Source: Mycobacterium leprae TN
Lineage (GTDB): Bacteria > Actinomycetota > Actinomycetes > Mycobacteriales > Mycobacteriaceae
Length of the DNA stretch: 32,000 nucleotides
Assembly: GCF_000195855.1 (NCBI RefSeq)
Contig: NC_002677.1
Coordinates: 2,910,001-2,942,000, forward strand
Reading direction: 5' to 3'
Positions 19,376 through 26,454 of this stretch are shown one piece after another. The position numbers were made by a program, and so were the translations under genes. Position 1 is the stretch's first letter; each line of letters starts with the position of its first letter. Below the pieces are notes generated by a model. That model worked only from the letters and a program-made list of their open reading frames with translations. It was not told where the DNA came from and did not search any database.

Positions 19376-19423
19376 AGTATGCATAACAAATGCTTGCTTT
19401 CGCAAGCATTTGTTATGCATACT
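19376..19423. repeat. Perfect 22-bp inverted repeat with a 4-nt spacer (48 nt), AT-rich; candidate operator or RNA hairpin
   Basis: agtatgcataacaaatgcttgc-tttc-gcaagcatttgttatgcatact, checked base by base. It begins 1 nt after the stop of the DUF445 pseudogene and ends 8 nt before GTG 19368 of the XRE pseudogene. Confidence 0.9.
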
Positions 19424-20030
19424 TCAGAGCAAAATTTGCGCAACGGTGTACATTGTTAGCCCGGCCAGCGCACTCACCACGGTGCCATTGATCCGAATAA
19501 ACTGCAGGTAACGGCCGAGTGCAATTCGATGCGTCGGCTGGCTTACTCGCCGTCTCAGCACTCGATCGCCTCGGTGATGATCGCTATAATCTCTACGCCA
19601 TATTGCAAAACCAGATGCTGGGTCGCCCGCACCATCCAGCCCTCGACTTTGTCTCGCATGTAGGCGGCGTCACACACAGTGATTCCCCGATCCGAACCAC
19701 GGTGTGGGCTATGCGGGCGCACAACGTGCCGGACGAGTCGACCAACCCTTCTGGACCCTAAGAAACCAGCGCCTCAACGTCTGCCACGCCATTGCCGATC
19801 TCATCGCGCGCTATCAACTGCTCCTTGACAGCACAGGTGCGCGCAATAGTGGGCCGGTTCATGCTGCAGATCGTCAGCGAGTTCTAACAGAAATCGAGTC
19901 AACGAACGACGTAATTTGTGGTCGGGGTTGCGACGCACTTTGTCGGTGAAGTCCACCAAATCACAATCTATGCGGTTATCACAACAACGATGCGGCAACC
20001 TAACGAGATGATCGATGAAGCTCGGCGACC
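19424..20030 (-). pseudogene. Truncated DUF445-type membrane protein pseudogene (Rv0473-like)
   Basis: The minus-strand C-terminus reads RYLQFIRINGTVVSALAGLTMYTVAQILL*, with the stop at 19426..19424. An upstream piece, DLVDFTDKVRRNPDHKLRRSLTRFLLELADDLQHEP, lies in another frame. Only about 0.6 kb remains where about 1.4 kb is expected. Confidence 0.45.
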
Positions 20031-20177
20031 TACTTAGGTGAGTCGCACTCGACCACCCGCTAGAGCGGGAAACCAGTTACTGTAACCACACTTTTCCCCG
20101 AGGCCTTGTGCGCATGGAGCCCATGCCATCGACAGGCCATAATATCGAGTGCGTCTAGTGAATGGGAACCAGGGACA

Positions 20178-20879
20178 GTGGCAGAGCATATCCCGGCTGT
20201 GGCCGTCAAGACGGATGGCCGCAAGCGGCGGTGGCATCAACACAAGGTAGAGCGCCGCAACGAGCTGGTTGACGGCACGATCGATGCGATTCGCCGGCAG
20301 GGCCGCTTCCTGAGTATGGATGAAATCGCAGGGAAGATCGGGGTCTCCAAGACCGTGCTTTACCGCTATTTCATAGACAAAAACGACCTGACTACAGCGG
20401 TGATGATGCGCTTCGCGCAGACCACGTTGATTCCCAACATGGCCGCCGCGCTGTCAACGAATTTGGATGGCTTCGATCTTACTCGCGAAATCATCCGGGT
20501 ATATGTCAAAACCGTGGCGGCCGAACCCGAGCCATATCAGTTTGTGATGGCGAACAGCTCGGCCAGCAAAAGTAAAGTGATCGCCGACTCTGAGCGGATC
20601 ATTGCGCGCATGCTCGCAGTCATGATACGTCGCCGCATGCAAGAGGCCGGCATGGACGCCGGCGGTGTGGAGCCCTGGGCTTACTTGATCGTTGGCGGCG
20701 TGCAGCTTGCCACCCACTCGTGGATGTCGGACCCGCGGATGAGCGCCGACGAGCTGATCGACTACCTGACCATGCTCAGCTGGAACGCACTGTGCGGGAT
20801 CGTCGAGGTCGGCGGATCGCTGGAAAAGTTCCGTAAGCAGCCACATCCATCACCGATAATCCCACCACGAGGGCCCTAA
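20178..20879 (+). CDS. TetR-family transcriptional regulator (Rv0472c-like)
   Basis: The HTH region reads LSMDEIAGKIGVSKTVLYRYFIDKNDL. The ORF is open from 20106, but GTG at 20178 gives about 233 aa, matching the homologue length as I recall it. Confidence 0.85.
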   Translation: MAEHIPAVAVKTDGRKRRWHQHKVERRNELVDGTIDAIRRQGRFLSMDEIAGKIGVSKTVLYRYFIDKNDLTTAVMMRFAQTTLIPNMAAALSTNLDGFDLTREIIRVYVKTVAAEPEPYQFVMANSSASKSKVIADSERIIARMLAVMIRRRMQEAGMDAGGVEPWAYLIVGGVQLATHSWMSDPRMSADELIDYLTMLSWNALCGIVEVGGSLEKFRKQPHPSPIIPPRGP

Positions 20880-22061
20880 GCGGTTCCGCCGCGGGTTTAG
20901 GCTTAAGGAATGTCCTAGGAGAGCGTTGGCTCGCGGCTGAAGTCGTGGGCATACGTACTACCAATCCGCCACCCGACACGCCGATCGACCACGTCACGCG
21001 CTGGCTCGTCGTCACGCGTGCCGCGGTACTGCCGAATGTACCTTGTTCTCTTGCCTTGTCGCGGTATTGCTGGCGGCCAATGACCCTGGTCTCGATTGAC
21101 GCTGGCTGATCCTGACCGTGGTGGATATCACGGGCGCGCGCATGGCCAACAACCTGTCTAGTTCCTACGTCAGTACCGACAGTGCCTATTCTACCCGCGT
21201 GCCCGCGACGCTACGCTCCTCACCCAGTCCTGTCAGCTTCCGCACGCTGAGTCTGGCAATATCTGTTGATGAATTCCGTCTACCTGGCAATCCCGGCCAT
21301 GATCGAGGGACCCGTGGCGGTTCCTCGCATTCAGCGGCTTCGCTCTATACTTTAGCGTTGCTTACACAGAATCTAAGCTGCGGTTATATAGAGATGTGAC
21401 TTCCGGTGCATCCGACATTTTCGTCCTATGATGCCCGCTAATGGTGTGTGGAACGTACTACTCGGCGGTGGACACAGCCAGTTGAGGCATCGCGCTGGCC
21501 TTGTATCTCTAATGGTTTGTTGTGCACGACGGTGCTGATGGGCAAGCGTATCTCCAAGATCCCACTACGACCGAGTGCTCGGCATCGCGACGTTCCCGGG
21601 TCCTGCTTGGCAAAGCTCGCGCTAGCGTGGTAAAGCTGGCCCGATGGCCCAGTTCTACTGTACTGGTCACAGCCGTTGCCGGGGTGGGAACGATGCTTTA
21701 GTCCGCATTGTGTCGTGCTGATAGCGCTGCCTCGGCTGGGTGAATGATGTGACCATATTTCCGTCGGCAGAAACCCAACCAACCGCCGCCGGAGTTTCCG
21801 GTCTGACCACTGTAGTACGCTGGGTGAACGTAGGTGCACGTGCGTCCGGCCGGTGGACTGCTCGTCATGGACCTCAGGATTGACGCCGGGCTGCACACAT
21901 TGTCAATCGCATCGACGGTTGTGATGCATGCCGAGCGCAGCGTAGACGACTTGAGCCACTTGAACGGTTAGCATGCAGGGGATGCATCGGGGGGCCAAGC
22001 CAGGGTGTGTCTTTTTTCGCGCCATAAACGCCTCCGGGACACAGAAAGGCTCAATAACCGT

Positions 22062-22949
22062 ATGTCCGTGCAGCTGACGCCGCATTTTAGAAACGTACAA
22101 GCCCATTACGACCTATCTGACGACTTCTTCCGCCTGTTCCTCGACCCCACCCTGACCTACAGCTGCGCGTATTTCGAGCGTGACGACATGACGCTCGAGG
22201 AAGCGCAGCTCGCCAAGGTCGATCTAGCGTTGGGAAAGCTCAAGCTTGAGCCCGGGATGACGTTGCTGGACATCGGCTGTGGTTGGGGCGCCACCATGAA
22301 ACGCGCGATTGAAATATACGACGTCAACGTTATAGGCCTGACCCTGTCCGAGAATCAGGCCGCCCACGTTCAGAAGACATTCGACGAGTTAGACACCCCC
22401 CGAACCCGGCGGGTACTGCTGGAGGGCTGGGAGAAGTTCCACGAACCTGTCGACCGGATTGTCTCGATCGGTGCATTCGAGCACTTCGGCCGCCAACGCT
22501 ATGCACGCTTCTTCAAGATGGCCCACGAAGTCCTACCGGCCGACAGCGTGATGTTACTGCACACCATCGTCCGTCCCACCTTTAAAGATGCCAGAGCGCG
22601 GGGCATGACTTTAACCCACGAGATTGTTCACTTTACCCAATTCATTTTGGCTGAGATCTTCCCTGGTGGCTGGTTACCAACAGTACCGACGGTGGAAGAG
22701 CACGCCACCGCGGCCGGTTTCAAGTTCACACGGATCCAGTCGCTGCAGCTACACTACGCCAAAACCCTGGACTTGTGGGCCGCCAGACTGGAAGCCAACA
22801 AGAACAAGGCGATCGCCATCCAGTCTGAAGAGGTCTACGACCGCTACATGAAGTACCTAACTGGGTGCGCAAAGCTGTTCCGCGACGGGTACACTGATGT
22901 CGACCAGTTCACTTTGGAAAAGCAACCAGCCACCGCACGCCGGCATTGA
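22062..22949 (+). CDS. pcaA: Cyclopropane mycolic acid synthase (SAM-dependent methyltransferase), PcaA-like
   Basis: MSVQLTPHFRNVQAHYDLSDDFFRLFLDPT... from ATG 22062 (ORF open from 22005). It has the SAM-binding motif LLDIGCGWGATM and a conserved C-terminus (YMKYLTGCAKLFRDGYTDVDQFTLEK) followed by 8 extra residues. Confidence 0.93.
   Translation: MSVQLTPHFRNVQAHYDLSDDFFRLFLDPTLTYSCAYFERDDMTLEEAQLAKVDLALGKLKLEPGMTLLDIGCGWGATMKRAIEIYDVNVIGLTLSENQAAHVQKTFDELDTPRTRRVLLEGWEKFHEPVDRIVSIGAFEHFGRQRYARFFKMAHEVLPADSVMLLHTIVRPTFKDARARGMTLTHEIVHFTQFILAEIFPGGWLPTVPTVEEHATAAGFKFTRIQSLQLHYAKTLDLWAARLEANKNKAIAIQSEEVYDRYMKYLTGCAKLFRDGYTDVDQFTLEKQPATARRH
22164..22867. repeat. Left arm of a perfect 704-bp inverted repeat (pcaA codons Cys35 to Cys269)
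   Basis: This is the exact reverse complement of 23129-23832. I checked both ends base by base and several interior stretches. Translations of the two arms are identical in two different frames. Confidence 0.93.
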
Positions 22950-23013
22950 GTCGCCCGCTTAACCATCAGAAAACCGTCGCGGATTTACCCCCAGAACCAT
23001 CCCAAAACCACAA

Positions 23014-23041
23014 ACTCCAGAGCCGCGCGCAAGTCTGGAGT
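23014..23041. terminator. Candidate bidirectional stem-loop between the convergent pcaA and umaA-like genes
   Basis: actccaga (23014-23021) pairs with tctggagt (23034-23041), enclosing the 12-nt loop gccgcgcgcaag. There is no U-tract, so the evidence is weak. Confidence 0.25.
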
Positions 23042-23072
23042 CATCCCCATCGCTTGAGACATCGTCGCAAGC

Positions 23073-23933
23073 TTACTTGGTCAAGGTGAAACTCCCCACG
23101 TTGCGGATGCCTTTGTGGAAGAAATACCCACCCAGTTAGGTACTTCATGTAGCGGTCGTAGACCTCTTCAGACTGGATGGCGATCGCCTTGTTCTTGTTG
23201 GCTTCCAGTCTGGCGGCCCACAAGTCCAGGGTTTTGGCGTAGTGTAGCTGCAGCGACTGGATCCGTGTGAACTTGAAACCGGCCGCGGTGGCGTGCTCTT
23301 CCACCGTCGGTACTGTTGGTAACCAGCCACCAGGGAAGATCTCAGCCAAAATGAATTGGGTAAAGTGAACAATCTCGTGGGTTAAAGTCATGCCCCGCGC
23401 TCTGGCATCTTTAAAGGTGGGACGGACGATGGTGTGCAGTAACATCACGCTGTCGGCCGGTAGGACTTCGTGGGCCATCTTGAAGAAGCGTGCATAGCGT
23501 TGGCGGCCGAAGTGCTCGAATGCACCGATCGAGACAATCCGGTCGACAGGTTCGTGGAACTTCTCCCAGCCCTCCAGCAGTACCCGCCGGGTTCGGGGGG
23601 TGTCTAACTCGTCGAATGTCTTCTGAACGTGGGCGGCCTGATTCTCGGACAGGGTCAGGCCTATAACGTTGACGTCGTATATTTCAATCGCGCGTTTCAT
23701 GGTGGCGCCCCAACCACAGCCGATGTCCAGCAACGTCATCCCGGGCTCAAGCTTGAGCTTTCCCAACGCTAGATCGACCTTGGCGAGCTGCGCTTCCTCG
23801 AGCGTCATGTCGTCACGCTCGAAATACGCGCACGTAATAACCTATCGTTGGATCTAAAAAATAATGCGAAAAATTCATCCGAAACATTATAAATAGATCA
23901 GGACTCTTCATAAAAAGGCGCCAGCTCGGTCAT
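23073..23933 (-). pseudogene. umaA: UmaA-like mycolic acid methyltransferase pseudogene with its core replaced by pcaA sequence
   Basis: The minus strand from ATG 23933 reads MTELAPFYEES*SIYNVSDEFFALF..., with a TGA at codon 12 and indels. The core 23832-23129 is identical to pcaA. The native tail GYFFHKGIRNVGSFTLTK* (stop 23075..23073) is out of frame with the core. ORF 23041..23808 in the track is only the internal Met-to-stop piece. Confidence 0.8.
23129..23832. repeat. Right arm of the perfect 704-bp inverted repeat
   Basis: Reverse complement of 22164-22867. The flanking bases on both sides differ between the two copies. Confidence 0.93.
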
Positions 23934-24085
23934 GCTCGGCAAAAACCTCTCGTTCGTCGACCTGAGCAGTGGTACCTTATTCTTACAACAACTGTTGTAC
24001 CACTCGGCGCGCTTGCGGATGATCTCGACATCCTCTCGGCGCTAACGACCTTGGCAAGAACCGCGCGGGTGGACCATATGCTACT

Positions 24086-24949
24086 TCAGTACGTATAGAA
24101 ACCCTGACCCGATTTTTTACCTAGCAGGCCCGCCTCGACCATACGTAGCAACAGCGGCGGCGGACCGTAGTGCGGTTCTTTAAATTCTTCGAACATCTTG
24201 TCCGCGATTAGTTTTAGGGTGTCCAAGCCAACGAGATCGGAGAGCCGCAGCGGGCCCATCGGGTGCGACAGCCCGGCAAGGACAGCCTTGTCGACATCTT
24301 CGACGGTGGCAAACCCAGCTTCGACTATCCGGATCGCCGACAACAAATAAGGCACCAGTAGAGCATTGACCACAAAACCAGACCGGTCCGAGCAGCGCAC
24401 CACTTGCTTGCCAAGTACTCCGCTGGCAAACTCTTCGGCACGAGTGGCAGCGGCTTCATCGGTGACCAACGTGCTGACCAATTCGACCAAGGGTAGCACT
24501 GGTACTGGGTTGAAGAAGTGCAGGCCCAGGACTCGTTGTGGGTTCTTGGTGGCCGCAGCGATTTTCATGATCGGGATGCTGGAGGTGTTCGACGCAAGCA
24601 CCGCATCGGGATCGGTAATGACTCGGTCGAGTTCGGCGAAAACCTTCGTCTTGACAGCCTCGTCCTCGACAATGGCCTCAATCACCAATTGCCGGTCGGC
24701 CAAGTCATTCAGGTCTGTGGTGAAGACCAGATGGCCAAGGGCACTGTCGCGCTCGCGCTCTGTCACCTTGCCTGCGCTAACGCCACGCTCCAAGGACTTC
24801 ACAATGCGGTTGCGTCCTGCGGTGACTAACGTGTCAGTGGTTTCAAACACCGTCACGCCAACACCGGCACGAACAGCAACTTCAGCGATGCCCGACCCCA
24901 TCTGCCCCGCCCCAACAACCCCTACTCGCTGGATCGCTGCATCACTCAC
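24086..24949 (-). CDS. fadB2: 3-hydroxybutyryl-CoA dehydrogenase
   Basis: The NAD-binding motif is VGVVGAGQMGSGIAE. The C-terminal dimerisation domain ends ...GKKSGQGFYTY. The ORF is open to 24997, but GTG at 24949 (VSDAAIQRVGVVG) matches the expected N-terminus. Confidence 0.93.
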   Translation of the reverse strand: MSDAAIQRVGVVGAGQMGSGIAEVAVRAGVGVTVFETTDTLVTAGRNRIVKSLERGVSAGKVTERERDSALGHLVFTTDLNDLADRQLVIEAIVEDEAVKTKVFAELDRVITDPDAVLASNTSSIPIMKIAAATKNPQRVLGLHFFNPVPVLPLVELVSTLVTDEAAATRAEEFASGVLGKQVVRCSDRSGFVVNALLVPYLLSAIRIVEAGFATVEDVDKAVLAGLSHPMGPLRLSDLVGLDTLKLIADKMFEEFKEPHYGPPPLLLRMVEAGLLGKKSGQGFYTY

Positions 24950-25177
24950 TGTTGTCTCTCCAGAGTCGTATTGTCGTTCTACCGCAAGAGGCCCCACCTA
25001 GGTTTGCTGGGCAGGGCCTAAATTGTCAAACTCATCTCAGGCCTTCGAACATAAATCGCAGCGAAAAACCAGCAGAAGTATCGCATCAGCTCCACGCCTA
25101 GCATGACCCCAGTCATGCTTAGTGGACCTACTCAATCGGGTTCACCTCGTCTGCGCAGACTTACGCCCACTCAATCC

Positions 25178-26454
25178 TCAGTGAAGCTGGCCTTCTTCGG
25201 TAGAACCGGTCAAAGCAACCGTCGACGAATGCAGATCGGCCATGGTGGCGACGCGATCAAAAGAGCCGGCACCAATCTCGCACTGGTGCGTGGTAGCGGT
25301 GTAGCCGCGCACTTCAGCGGCAAACTAGCACTCCTACAACTCAACCTAGGCGGTCATCTGGTTACGAGCATAATCGTAGGCGAGATCGAACATGGAATAG
25401 TTCAGTGCATGGAAGCCGGCCAACGTAATAGAATGGAATTTGAATCCCATTGCAGAAAAATCCTTCTGGAACTTGGTGATATTGCTGTAGTCAAGGTGTT
25501 GCTTACAATTGCACGATAGCGAACTAATAGGCCAGTATCTGGTCCGGGTAGGAATCCTTGACCGACTCGGAGAATTTCTATGCAAGTTTGAGGTACGGTG
25601 GTGTCGGTCTCCATCCAGATTAAATCGACTAACGGCGCATAGATTTTTGCCCGAGCGATACAGAGCTCGATGCCGTTCTTGGCGAGGTAGAAACCGCCCT
25701 TAGTGCGCTCACCGGTGATTAACGGCCGGTCACGCTCGTCTACGTCGGAGGTTATCAGGGTGGCAACCTCGGCGTTGGGACGGGCAATCATGACAGTCAG
25801 CACGTCGAACACGAGCCGAGCAGACATCAAGTGCGGATGTGCTGCTGGGTAGGGGAATCAGCACCTTGCCGCCCAGGTGACCACATTTCTTCTCAGAGGC
25901 CAAGCTGATACTCCCCCAATGCTAACCAGCAACACCCATGGTGATCAAGGCCTTCTACAGTTCGAAAACGTTAAGCACACTACCGAAGCCAACCTCACCA
26001 TCAGCGACGATCTGCGCTAGCCAGTTCTCCACCGAGGTGTCGGCCTCAACCTTGGCGATCTGGTCGGCGCGCCGTTAATACGGCGGAGTACTTGCAGCAC
26101 CGAGTTGGCCGGGTACAGGCTTTAGCCGGGGTAGGTGTTGCCGGACAAGTTAGGCGTCACCGGCGATCTGCCAACACGACAGGTAGATAGCCTTCAGGCC
26201 GGCGCGCACCTGCTAGACAGCCATGTTGCCAATCAGGGCACGGATCTTGGCTTTGACTCATTTCCAGTCATGCAACTGTTCCCACAACCGCTCCGCGCCA
26301 CGGCGGGCTAGCGTGTGGTCCTCGACGACGCTGCCCTGCAGGGCTGCCACGTCCGCAGCGGTGTAGGTAACGAGTGGACGTCCTTCCAACGCGAATCTGT
26401 GTAGCCAGTCGTGCTGAATCCGCTCGGCGCTCTTGGGGTGCCGACGACAGACAG
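25178..26454 (-). pseudogene. icl: Isocitrate lyase pseudogene
   Basis: Minus-strand fragments in several frames include (L)SVVGTP..., [92 protein letters not shown] and [15 protein letters not shown]. There are many stops and frameshifts. CTG replaces the start codon at 26454, and the AAGGAG Shine-Dalgarno survives at 26463-26468. Confidence 0.85.

Follow-up and report, generated by a model that had tools for sequence, protein, structure and literature searches.

How does a dead gene come to carry, in reverse orientation, exactly the same several hundred nucleotides (nt) as the working gene beside it, and how long can such an identity last? The question is raised by a 32,000-nt stretch of the Mycobacterium leprae genome (the window, here meaning the whole stretch analyzed; coordinates are positions within it unless another sequence is named), in which the intact gene pcaA and the convergent pseudogene umaA1 are the two halves of a perfect palindrome. 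The answer favored here, and considered very probable, is concerted evolution of the pcaA/umaA1 palindrome by recurrent gene conversion, still under way in both leprosy bacilli, M. leprae and M. lepromatosis. The process is already well known; this palindrome is a new example of it. The parts of the locus are:

22062..22949, + strand: pcaA (ML2459, annotated umaA2), intact, 295 amino acids (aa), predicted cyclopropane mycolic acid synthase
22164..22867, + strand: arm 1, codons 35-268 and 2 nt of codon 269 of pcaA, half of the perfect inverted repeat
22868..23128: unique spacer, 261 nt, made up of the pcaA 3′ end (22868-22949), the inter-gene sequence (22950-23072) and a frameshifted umaA 3′ remnant (23073-23128)
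23129..23832, - strand: arm 2, the identical 704 nt, in register within the umaA1 pseudogene; a putative converted tract, from its mosaic pattern
23073..23933, - strand: umaA1 pseudogene (ML2460c), delimited by reading the sequence and by alignment to intact umaA genes

A repeat search over 20000-26000 returned 22164-22867 and 23129-23832 as a 704-nt inverted pair, 100% complementary with 261 nt between, and direct string comparison of the two arms reproduced the identity, bearing out the exact repeat first described in an earlier reading of the DNA without database searches (the sequence-only reading). It is the sole repeat of 40 nt or longer in the window; a random origin for a match of 704 nt is effectively impossible. 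The long open reading frames (ORFs) that the same reading listed (22005..22949, + strand; 23041..23808, - strand) are both present, as are its identical 75-aa second-frame ORFs (22624..22851, +; 23145..23372, -), the latter pair a trivial consequence of the repeat. Its count of 234 shared residues holds for the arms, where 234 codons are identical (Cys35-Gly268, followed by 2 nt of Cys269), but not for the listed ORFs, which share 226 because the minus-strand ORF starts at an internal Met43, 24 nt inside the arm. Long perfect arms with a short spacer may also, as a reasonable supposition, be a substrate for cruciform or hairpin formation. A mobile-element origin was considered and rejected, since both arms are coding sequence, in register, of two old paralogues and the window has no other repeats. 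Terminator and promoter scans at the locus gave nothing exceeding shuffled expectation, and the terminator scan found no convincing intrinsic terminator on the + strand of the spacer.

Such identity is foreign to this pair of genes elsewhere. Where the fadB2-umaA/pcaA layout was compared in other mycobacteria (eight loci), PcaA and UmaA share 57-59% of their amino acids; the earlier reading had given only moderate identity for the M. tuberculosis paralogues. Over the arm region the nucleotide identity is 61-66% (those of the eight loci that were aligned), and the longest identical pcaA/umaA runs at these loci are 24-32 nt. The two genes are thus not normally near-identical, and ancient paralogy fails, as had been proposed, to explain the match. 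The tract spans the outer ends of two blocks conserved between the paralogues (CAYFERDDMTLEEAQ..LEPGMTLLDIGCGWG and AIQSEEVYDRYMKYLTGC): compared paralogue with paralogue in other species, these are 73-88% and 65-97% identical, and the intervening ~500 nt 45-60%. In two other mycobacterial loci (L004 and L089), pcaA and umaA have patches of 80-88% identity in 60-nt windows, with identical runs of 24-32 nt, near both blocks, and the umaA of L004 carries a pcaA-like ANKEKA stretch. These hint that short pcaA/umaA conversions are widespread.

The source of arm 2 can be read from an alignment in which both M. leprae genes are set against their pcaA and umaA counterparts in M. lepromatosis, in M. 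uberis and in four further mycobacteria. Outgroup loci were taken from at least 80 matched by a FadB2 query; M. leprae, M. lepromatosis and M. tuberculosis are absent from those listed, and the loci of the leprosy bacilli were obtained through exact-protein look-ups. The arm sequence is 87-88% identical to the closest outgroup pcaA genes (M. uberis and an ENA Mycobacterium) and 79-83% to more distant ones; arm 2 has just 54-65% identity to outgroup umaA. The flanks of umaA1, both 5′ and 3′, show the reverse pattern, with 63-82% identity to outgroup umaA and 47-59% to outgroup pcaA, and at both tract edges identity falls from 100% to ~50%. The pseudogene is thus a mosaic, a pcaA-like arm between umaA-like flanks, in agreement with the earlier proposal that the pcaA core had been copied into a convergent umaA-like pseudogene, and the alignment supports pcaA as donor and the umaA pseudogene as recipient. 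Codons 35-269 of the dead umaA have been swapped in register for pcaA sequence, a homologous replacement; insertion of a duplicate can be excluded, since the flanks of umaA still lie in register. Outside the arm, umaA1 has its original ATG at 23933-23931, followed by an in-frame TGA at codon 12 (23900-23898); there are indels ahead of the arm and a 2-nt deletion directly after it, and the original TAA lies at 23075-23073.

The sister species has the same structure. M. lepromatosis FJ924 (CP083405.1; L088) contains a perfect 705-nt inverted repeat in the same layout (L088 9977-10681 and 10933-11637), with a 251-nt spacer. A four-way alignment shows no difference between the two arms of either species, and 49 of 704 sites differ between the species, every one of them in both arms of the respective species. 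Outgroups allowed 45 of the 49 to be polarized: 26 changes arose in the leprae lineage and 19 in that of lepromatosis, with four left unpolarized. With derived changes on both branches and in both arms, copying must therefore have taken place after the species split, in both lineages. Of the alternatives offered in the sequence-only reading (in-register gene conversion, ongoing concerted evolution, an assembly or engineering artefact), ongoing concerted evolution is the right one, given the M. lepromatosis palindrome; a lone recent conversion in M. leprae is insufficient.

Among the arm codons that differ, 37 are synonymous and 9 nonsynonymous (synonymous divergence dS = 0.29, nonsynonymous divergence dN = 0.018, dN/dS = 0.06). 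The arm substitutions were also searched for a signature of GC-biased conversion, and had none (36 GC>AT vs. 6 AT>GC); the GC>AT excess is the general AT drift of the leprosy-bacillus genomes. Nucleotide identities between M. leprae and M. lepromatosis across the locus are:

TetR-family gene: 95.1%
Arm 1 and arm 2: 93.0%, no gaps
fadB2: 92.8%
icl pseudogene region: 84.8%, with 186 gap columns
umaA 5′ remnant: 78.0%
umaA 3′ remnant: 72.7%
Spacer: 73-88%, with indels; spacer center 78.8%

By these figures the core of the pseudogene evolves at the rate of a selected gene, and its own flanks evolve neutrally. Identity within a genome (100% between arms in each species) combined with divergence between species (93.0%) and with lineage-specific derived changes shared by both arms is the textbook signature of concerted evolution, found here together with sharp mosaic edges and paralogues that are normally divergent.

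The tempo can be estimated from the split of M. leprae and M. lepromatosis, placed at ~13.9 million years ago (Mya; PMC9248898; PMC12035532). Taking dS of ~0.29 as neutral divergence over this time gives ~1e-8 changes per site per year. At this rate, unconverted arms would be expected to differ at roughly 130 sites within a genome, where none are seen, and one new arm-to-arm difference should appear about every ~0.1 million years (My). With zero differences between arms, the last homogenization would therefore fall roughly within the past ~0.3 My (95% bound) in each species.

A plausible course of events begins with pcaA and umaA as ancient convergent paralogues beside fadB2, umaA having died in the leprosy-bacillus lineage. 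Its core, from the CAYFERDD block to the YMKYLTGC block, would then have been replaced in register by pcaA, giving the 704-nt inverted repeat; in this founding step pcaA most likely served as the template for homologous repair of a broken or gapped umaA, with the ends anchored in the two conserved blocks. Being identical, the arms would readily undergo homologous recombination, presumably through RecA, and non-crossover exchange, that is, gene conversion, would have homogenized them ever since in M. leprae and M. lepromatosis. With selection acting on the pcaA copy only, the pair evolves as a functional gene does, and the pseudogene core is carried along. Crossing over would flip the 261-nt spacer and leave pcaA with a nonsense 3′ end, and its products would be expected to be removed by selection.

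The date of the founding step depends partly on M. uberis, which split off ~28 Mya (PMC9248898). Its umaA remnant is heavily decayed and unconverted, with 54-55% identity to pcaA over the arm region. At the 3′ block, its pcaA and umaA share a 62-nt perfectly identical inverted run (L087 10747-10808 and 10978-11039), with a derived GAC>AAC change in both copies that is in no other aligned sequence, and the run stops at the 3′ edge common to the leprosy-bacillus tract. It reads as a miniature conversion tract, which suggests that pcaA/umaA exchange has been recurrent in the clade. The shared tract edges were at first a candidate proof of one ancestral event, an argument weakened by this patch with the same 3′ edge. 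On parsimony a single founding event between ~28 and ~14 Mya is favored, not proven; it is fairly probable.

Several points weigh against the reading as concerted evolution from an ancestral palindrome. The shared edges may be set by the conserved homology blocks and not by common ancestry. For FJ924, 75-bp reads were assembled de novo and aligned to an M. leprae template in repeated cycles. The identity of its arm interiors could therefore partly reflect one collapsed repeat contig placed twice, and a rare difference between the arms might go unseen behind it; the junctions can be trusted, as species-specific bases fall within read length of the flanks. A second M. lepromatosis assembly, the Mx1-22A draft (JRPY01000106.1; L097), has arm 1 as in FJ924, continues through the spacer and breaks off 358 nt into arm 2. 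This part of arm 2 includes 16 Ns (L097 11185-11314) and one real difference from arm 1, at L097 11314 (arm position 450), where the arm 2 base is M. leprae-like and the arm 1 base is as in FJ924; either the draft is wrong at this site or the arms have still to be homogenized there.

Of the other explanations, the one that fares best, though it is unlikely, is that the palindrome is useful: the dead umaA core might be a spare template for repairing or purging pcaA mutations in an asexual, decaying genome, in the manner of the Y chromosome, and/or the spacer an invertible on/off switch of the pcaA 3′ end within bacterial populations. The structure has persisted for ~14 My in two otherwise decaying genomes, and conversion between its arms is demonstrably active; many other pseudogenes are equally long-lived, so that persistence need not imply selection (PMC9248898). 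For a switch, the pertinent observation is that contigs exist with the spacer in either orientation. Four Logan contigs (L081-L084) have the orientation of the reference, and six more (L090-L095, covering window 20738-24139) the opposite one: in L090 and L091 the pcaA 5′ flank and arm lead into a reversed spacer, and in L092-L095 the umaA 5′ flank and arm lead into the pcaA 3′ end. These come from a k=31 graph, which cannot phase 704 nt, and could be either de Bruijn-graph ambiguity or real inversion isomers. They were rejected as evidence of inversion, since ambiguity alone would be expected to produce them; moreover, the NCBI forms on contigs of >1 Mb are pcaA-intact, and flipped forms occur in Logan contigs only. 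PcaA translated from a flipped molecule would have a nonsense tail (P0128), so selection should remove crossover products. No recombinase was among the eight window ORFs checked with Pfam (which gave TetR, 3HCDH, thioesterase, CMD, prenyltransferase, DeoC and LmeA, and one without a match), the window not having been searched exhaustively for a site-specific recombinase.

As a second possibility, two independent one-off conversions, one in each species and each by chance very recent, might have produced the two palindromes without an ancestral one. This is unlikely, and rather more so than a useful palindrome. It draws on the same facts that weaken the argument from shared edges, namely that the tract edges are the outer ends of paralogue-conserved blocks and that the M. 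uberis patch has the same 3′ edge. It calls for two rare events between ~62%-identical sequences over the same 704-705 nt, both within about the last 2-3% of a 13.9-My branch, with a joint chance estimated here as ~1e-3; recurrent conversion is therefore a much better account than two one-off events.

A third possibility, that M. leprae alone underwent one recent gene conversion (or inverted duplication) and nothing has continued since, is very improbable. The perfect identity of the M. leprae arms, taken alone, would be compatible with one recent event. The M. lepromatosis palindrome, with the same edges and at least 19 derived substitutions of its own in both arms, is not, and the duplication variant fails on the umaA flanks kept in register.

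There remains the concern that arm 2 of the reference is a misplaced copy of arm 1, an alternative raised in the sequence-only reading and checked for M. leprae. In short-read Logan contigs from separate SRA runs, all four arm/flank junctions are recovered: L081 and L082 match 21459-23071 and 21808-23127 (unique flank, arm 1 and spacer), and L083 and L084 match 22872-23962 and 23002-24062 (spacer, arm 2 and the flank on the umaA/fadB2 side), all at 100% identity to the window. Separate runs also yield both junctions of arm 2 with the umaA flanks at 100% identity (L083, L084, L092-L095). In the NCBI draft GCA_001648835.1 (M. leprae 3125609), a 1669-nt contig, LVXE01000105.1, equals window 22164-23832 base for base. 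A pcaA product ending at residue 268, the last full arm codon, occurs on at least 24 contigs; the four of these that were read (L101-L104) all stop at base 22867, exactly where arm 1 meets the spacer. The breaks in the contigs read coincide with arm edges (22164, 22867 and 23832), as they should because graph assemblers behave in this way at a perfect inverted repeat. A protein look-up found both ORFs on contigs of >1 Mb, and in an 11-member protein cluster at 90% identity the M. leprae members have no variant in the arm-encoded part. An artefact of assembly or collapse, even with short-read assemblers unable to phase across 704 nt, Logan contigs connecting the flanks in all four combinations and the FJ924 assembly guided by a template, is the most improbable explanation of all and is set aside for M. 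leprae on the independent junctions, the 1669-nt contig, the invariant proteins, the breaks at arm edges and the >1-Mb contigs.

Some smaller observations came from the same material. Two further contigs, L085 and L086, differ from the window at a single base, 25685, outside the arms, and are not copies of the window sequence because of it. This position, in the icl pseudogene region, is T in the window and G in two Logan contigs (SRR847060 and SRR6241771), probably a single-nucleotide polymorphism (SNP) between strains. The differences of L091 from the window likewise fall outside the arms. Two Logan protein variants of the two ORFs, P0001 and P0130, were considered as strain alleles and rejected: their tails (..QIGRAHV and ..EIGRAHV) read like translated Illumina adapter. 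P0001 is nonetheless the cluster representative.

Several known systems resemble this one in part. Abdulkarim and Hughes are said to have described, in 1996, concerted evolution of tufA and tufB by gene conversion in Salmonella and E. coli. There, too, inversely oriented bacterial paralogues are kept near-identical through non-reciprocal homologous exchange, with identity within a genome higher than that between species. The tuf genes are both functional and lie hundreds of kb apart, whereas the present pair includes a pseudogene, has just 261 nt between its arms and is homogenized over an internal 704-nt tract only.

Closer in architecture are sex-chromosome palindromes; Rozen et al. reportedly described Y palindromes with arm-to-arm gene conversion in 2003. 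The mammalian palindromes share with the present one inverted arms of >99.9% identity, a short unique spacer, arms that co-evolve, conservation in sister species, and a setting in a non-recombining, decaying part of the genome (for X palindromes, PMC8981503). Here the near-perfect arms measure 704 nt around a 261-nt spacer in M. leprae and 705 nt around a 251-nt spacer in M. lepromatosis. Sex-chromosome palindromes differ in scale (kb to Mb), in usually having functional genes in both arms and in GC-biased conversion; the one here is 0.7 kb and has no GC bias.

Within the genus, conversion among esx and PE/PPE genes of M. tuberculosis (Uplekar et al., 2011, cited in PMC7308449) is likewise a patchy, non-reciprocal exchange between paralogues. 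It involves dispersed or direct copies, variable patches and antigenic variation, in contrast to a stable perfect palindrome in two species. Exchange between a working gene and a dead copy is known from the rpl23 gene and pseudogene of the barley chloroplast, where mostly pseudogene variants enter the gene, in mutator lines (PMC6620283); here it is the pseudogene core that is continuously overwritten, evolving at the rate of a functional gene.

Invertible switches such as fimS and hin use short inverted repeats and a dedicated site-specific recombinase. They resemble this locus in having a short segment between inverted repeats, and inversion, hypothetical here, would alter the 3′ end of a gene; their repeats are short, against the 704 nt of the arms here. 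What is distinctive about the pcaA/umaA1 case is the combination of a pseudogene partner, arms 261 nt apart, perfect identity, and occurrence in two species known for decay and stasis.

M. leprae is regarded as almost frozen, clonal and pseudogene-rich, and this locus indicates that homologous recombination is still active in it, sufficiently so over ~14 My, in both leprosy species, to erase all differences between two 704-nt copies. There are practical consequences. Dating of pseudogenes would give umaA1 a falsely young "age." Reads from pcaA and umaA1 are indistinguishable, so that pcaA variants may be mis-called or masked in variant calling. A SNP in one arm only, among the hundreds of sequenced strains, would directly measure the conversion rate in an unculturable organism. 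The structure is also a natural test of bacterial tolerance to a long perfect palindrome.

Annotation has been affected as well. In M. lepromatosis the umaA1 pseudogene is annotated as coding for a "SAM-dependent methyltransferase" (L088 10001-10765; CP083405.1 407259-408023; MLPF_0400, UKN41657.1), because its core has been kept intact by conversion. UKN41657.1 is the second M. lepromatosis methyltransferase in the protein cluster, and its accession adjoins that of the PcaA of this species, UKN41658.1. MLPF_0400 is listed as an "extra CDS" in Table S1B of PMC9248898, and Table S3 gives the 705-nt segments (407235-407939 and 408191-408895) only as "other repeat_region"; the paper makes no mention of pcaA, umaA or inverted repeats. 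No published account of conversion at the pcaA/umaA locus was found in a literature search, the coverage of which was incomplete, so that an earlier mention is possible.

The identity of the arm 1 gene is consistent across several lines of evidence. The true start of pcaA is likely the ATG at 22062, giving 295 aa, and the product of 22062-22949 is an exact match to WP_010908913.1/CAC31976.1, [quoted passage not shown] It scores 511 bits against the NCBIfam mycolic-acid methyltransferase model NF040660 (cut-off 390), and outside the leprosy bacilli it is closest to PcaA proteins, at 85-91% identity (M. kansasii PcaA, 90%). Together with synteny, the hidden Markov model score and these relatives identify it as a predicted PcaA orthologue of the cyclopropane mycolic acid synthase family, whose expected activity would be proximal cyclopropanation of alpha-mycolates. 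Table S4 of PMC9248898 names ML2459 as umaA2, "mycolic acid synthase" (equivalent to pcaA), and ML2461c as fadB2. The window carries, in order, a TetR-family gene (20106-20879), pcaA (+), the umaA1 pseudogene (-), fadB2 (24086-24997, -) and the icl pseudogene; the order TetR - pcaA - umaA - fadB2 - icl is also found in M. lepromatosis, M. uberis and another mycobacterium (L089).

The pcaA stop codon, TAA or TAG in the other aligned mycobacteria, reads CAA in both leprosy bacilli (window 22923-22949), adding a C-terminal extension of 8 residues to PcaA: QPATARRH in M. leprae and QPAAARRH in M. lepromatosis. Farther upstream, ~700 nt before the TetR-family gene, the window has a perfect hairpin palindrome of 22 nt + 22 nt with a 4-nt loop at 19376-19423 (AGTATGCATAACAAATGCTTGC tttc GCAAGCATTTGTTATGCATACT), which may be an operator or a terminator.

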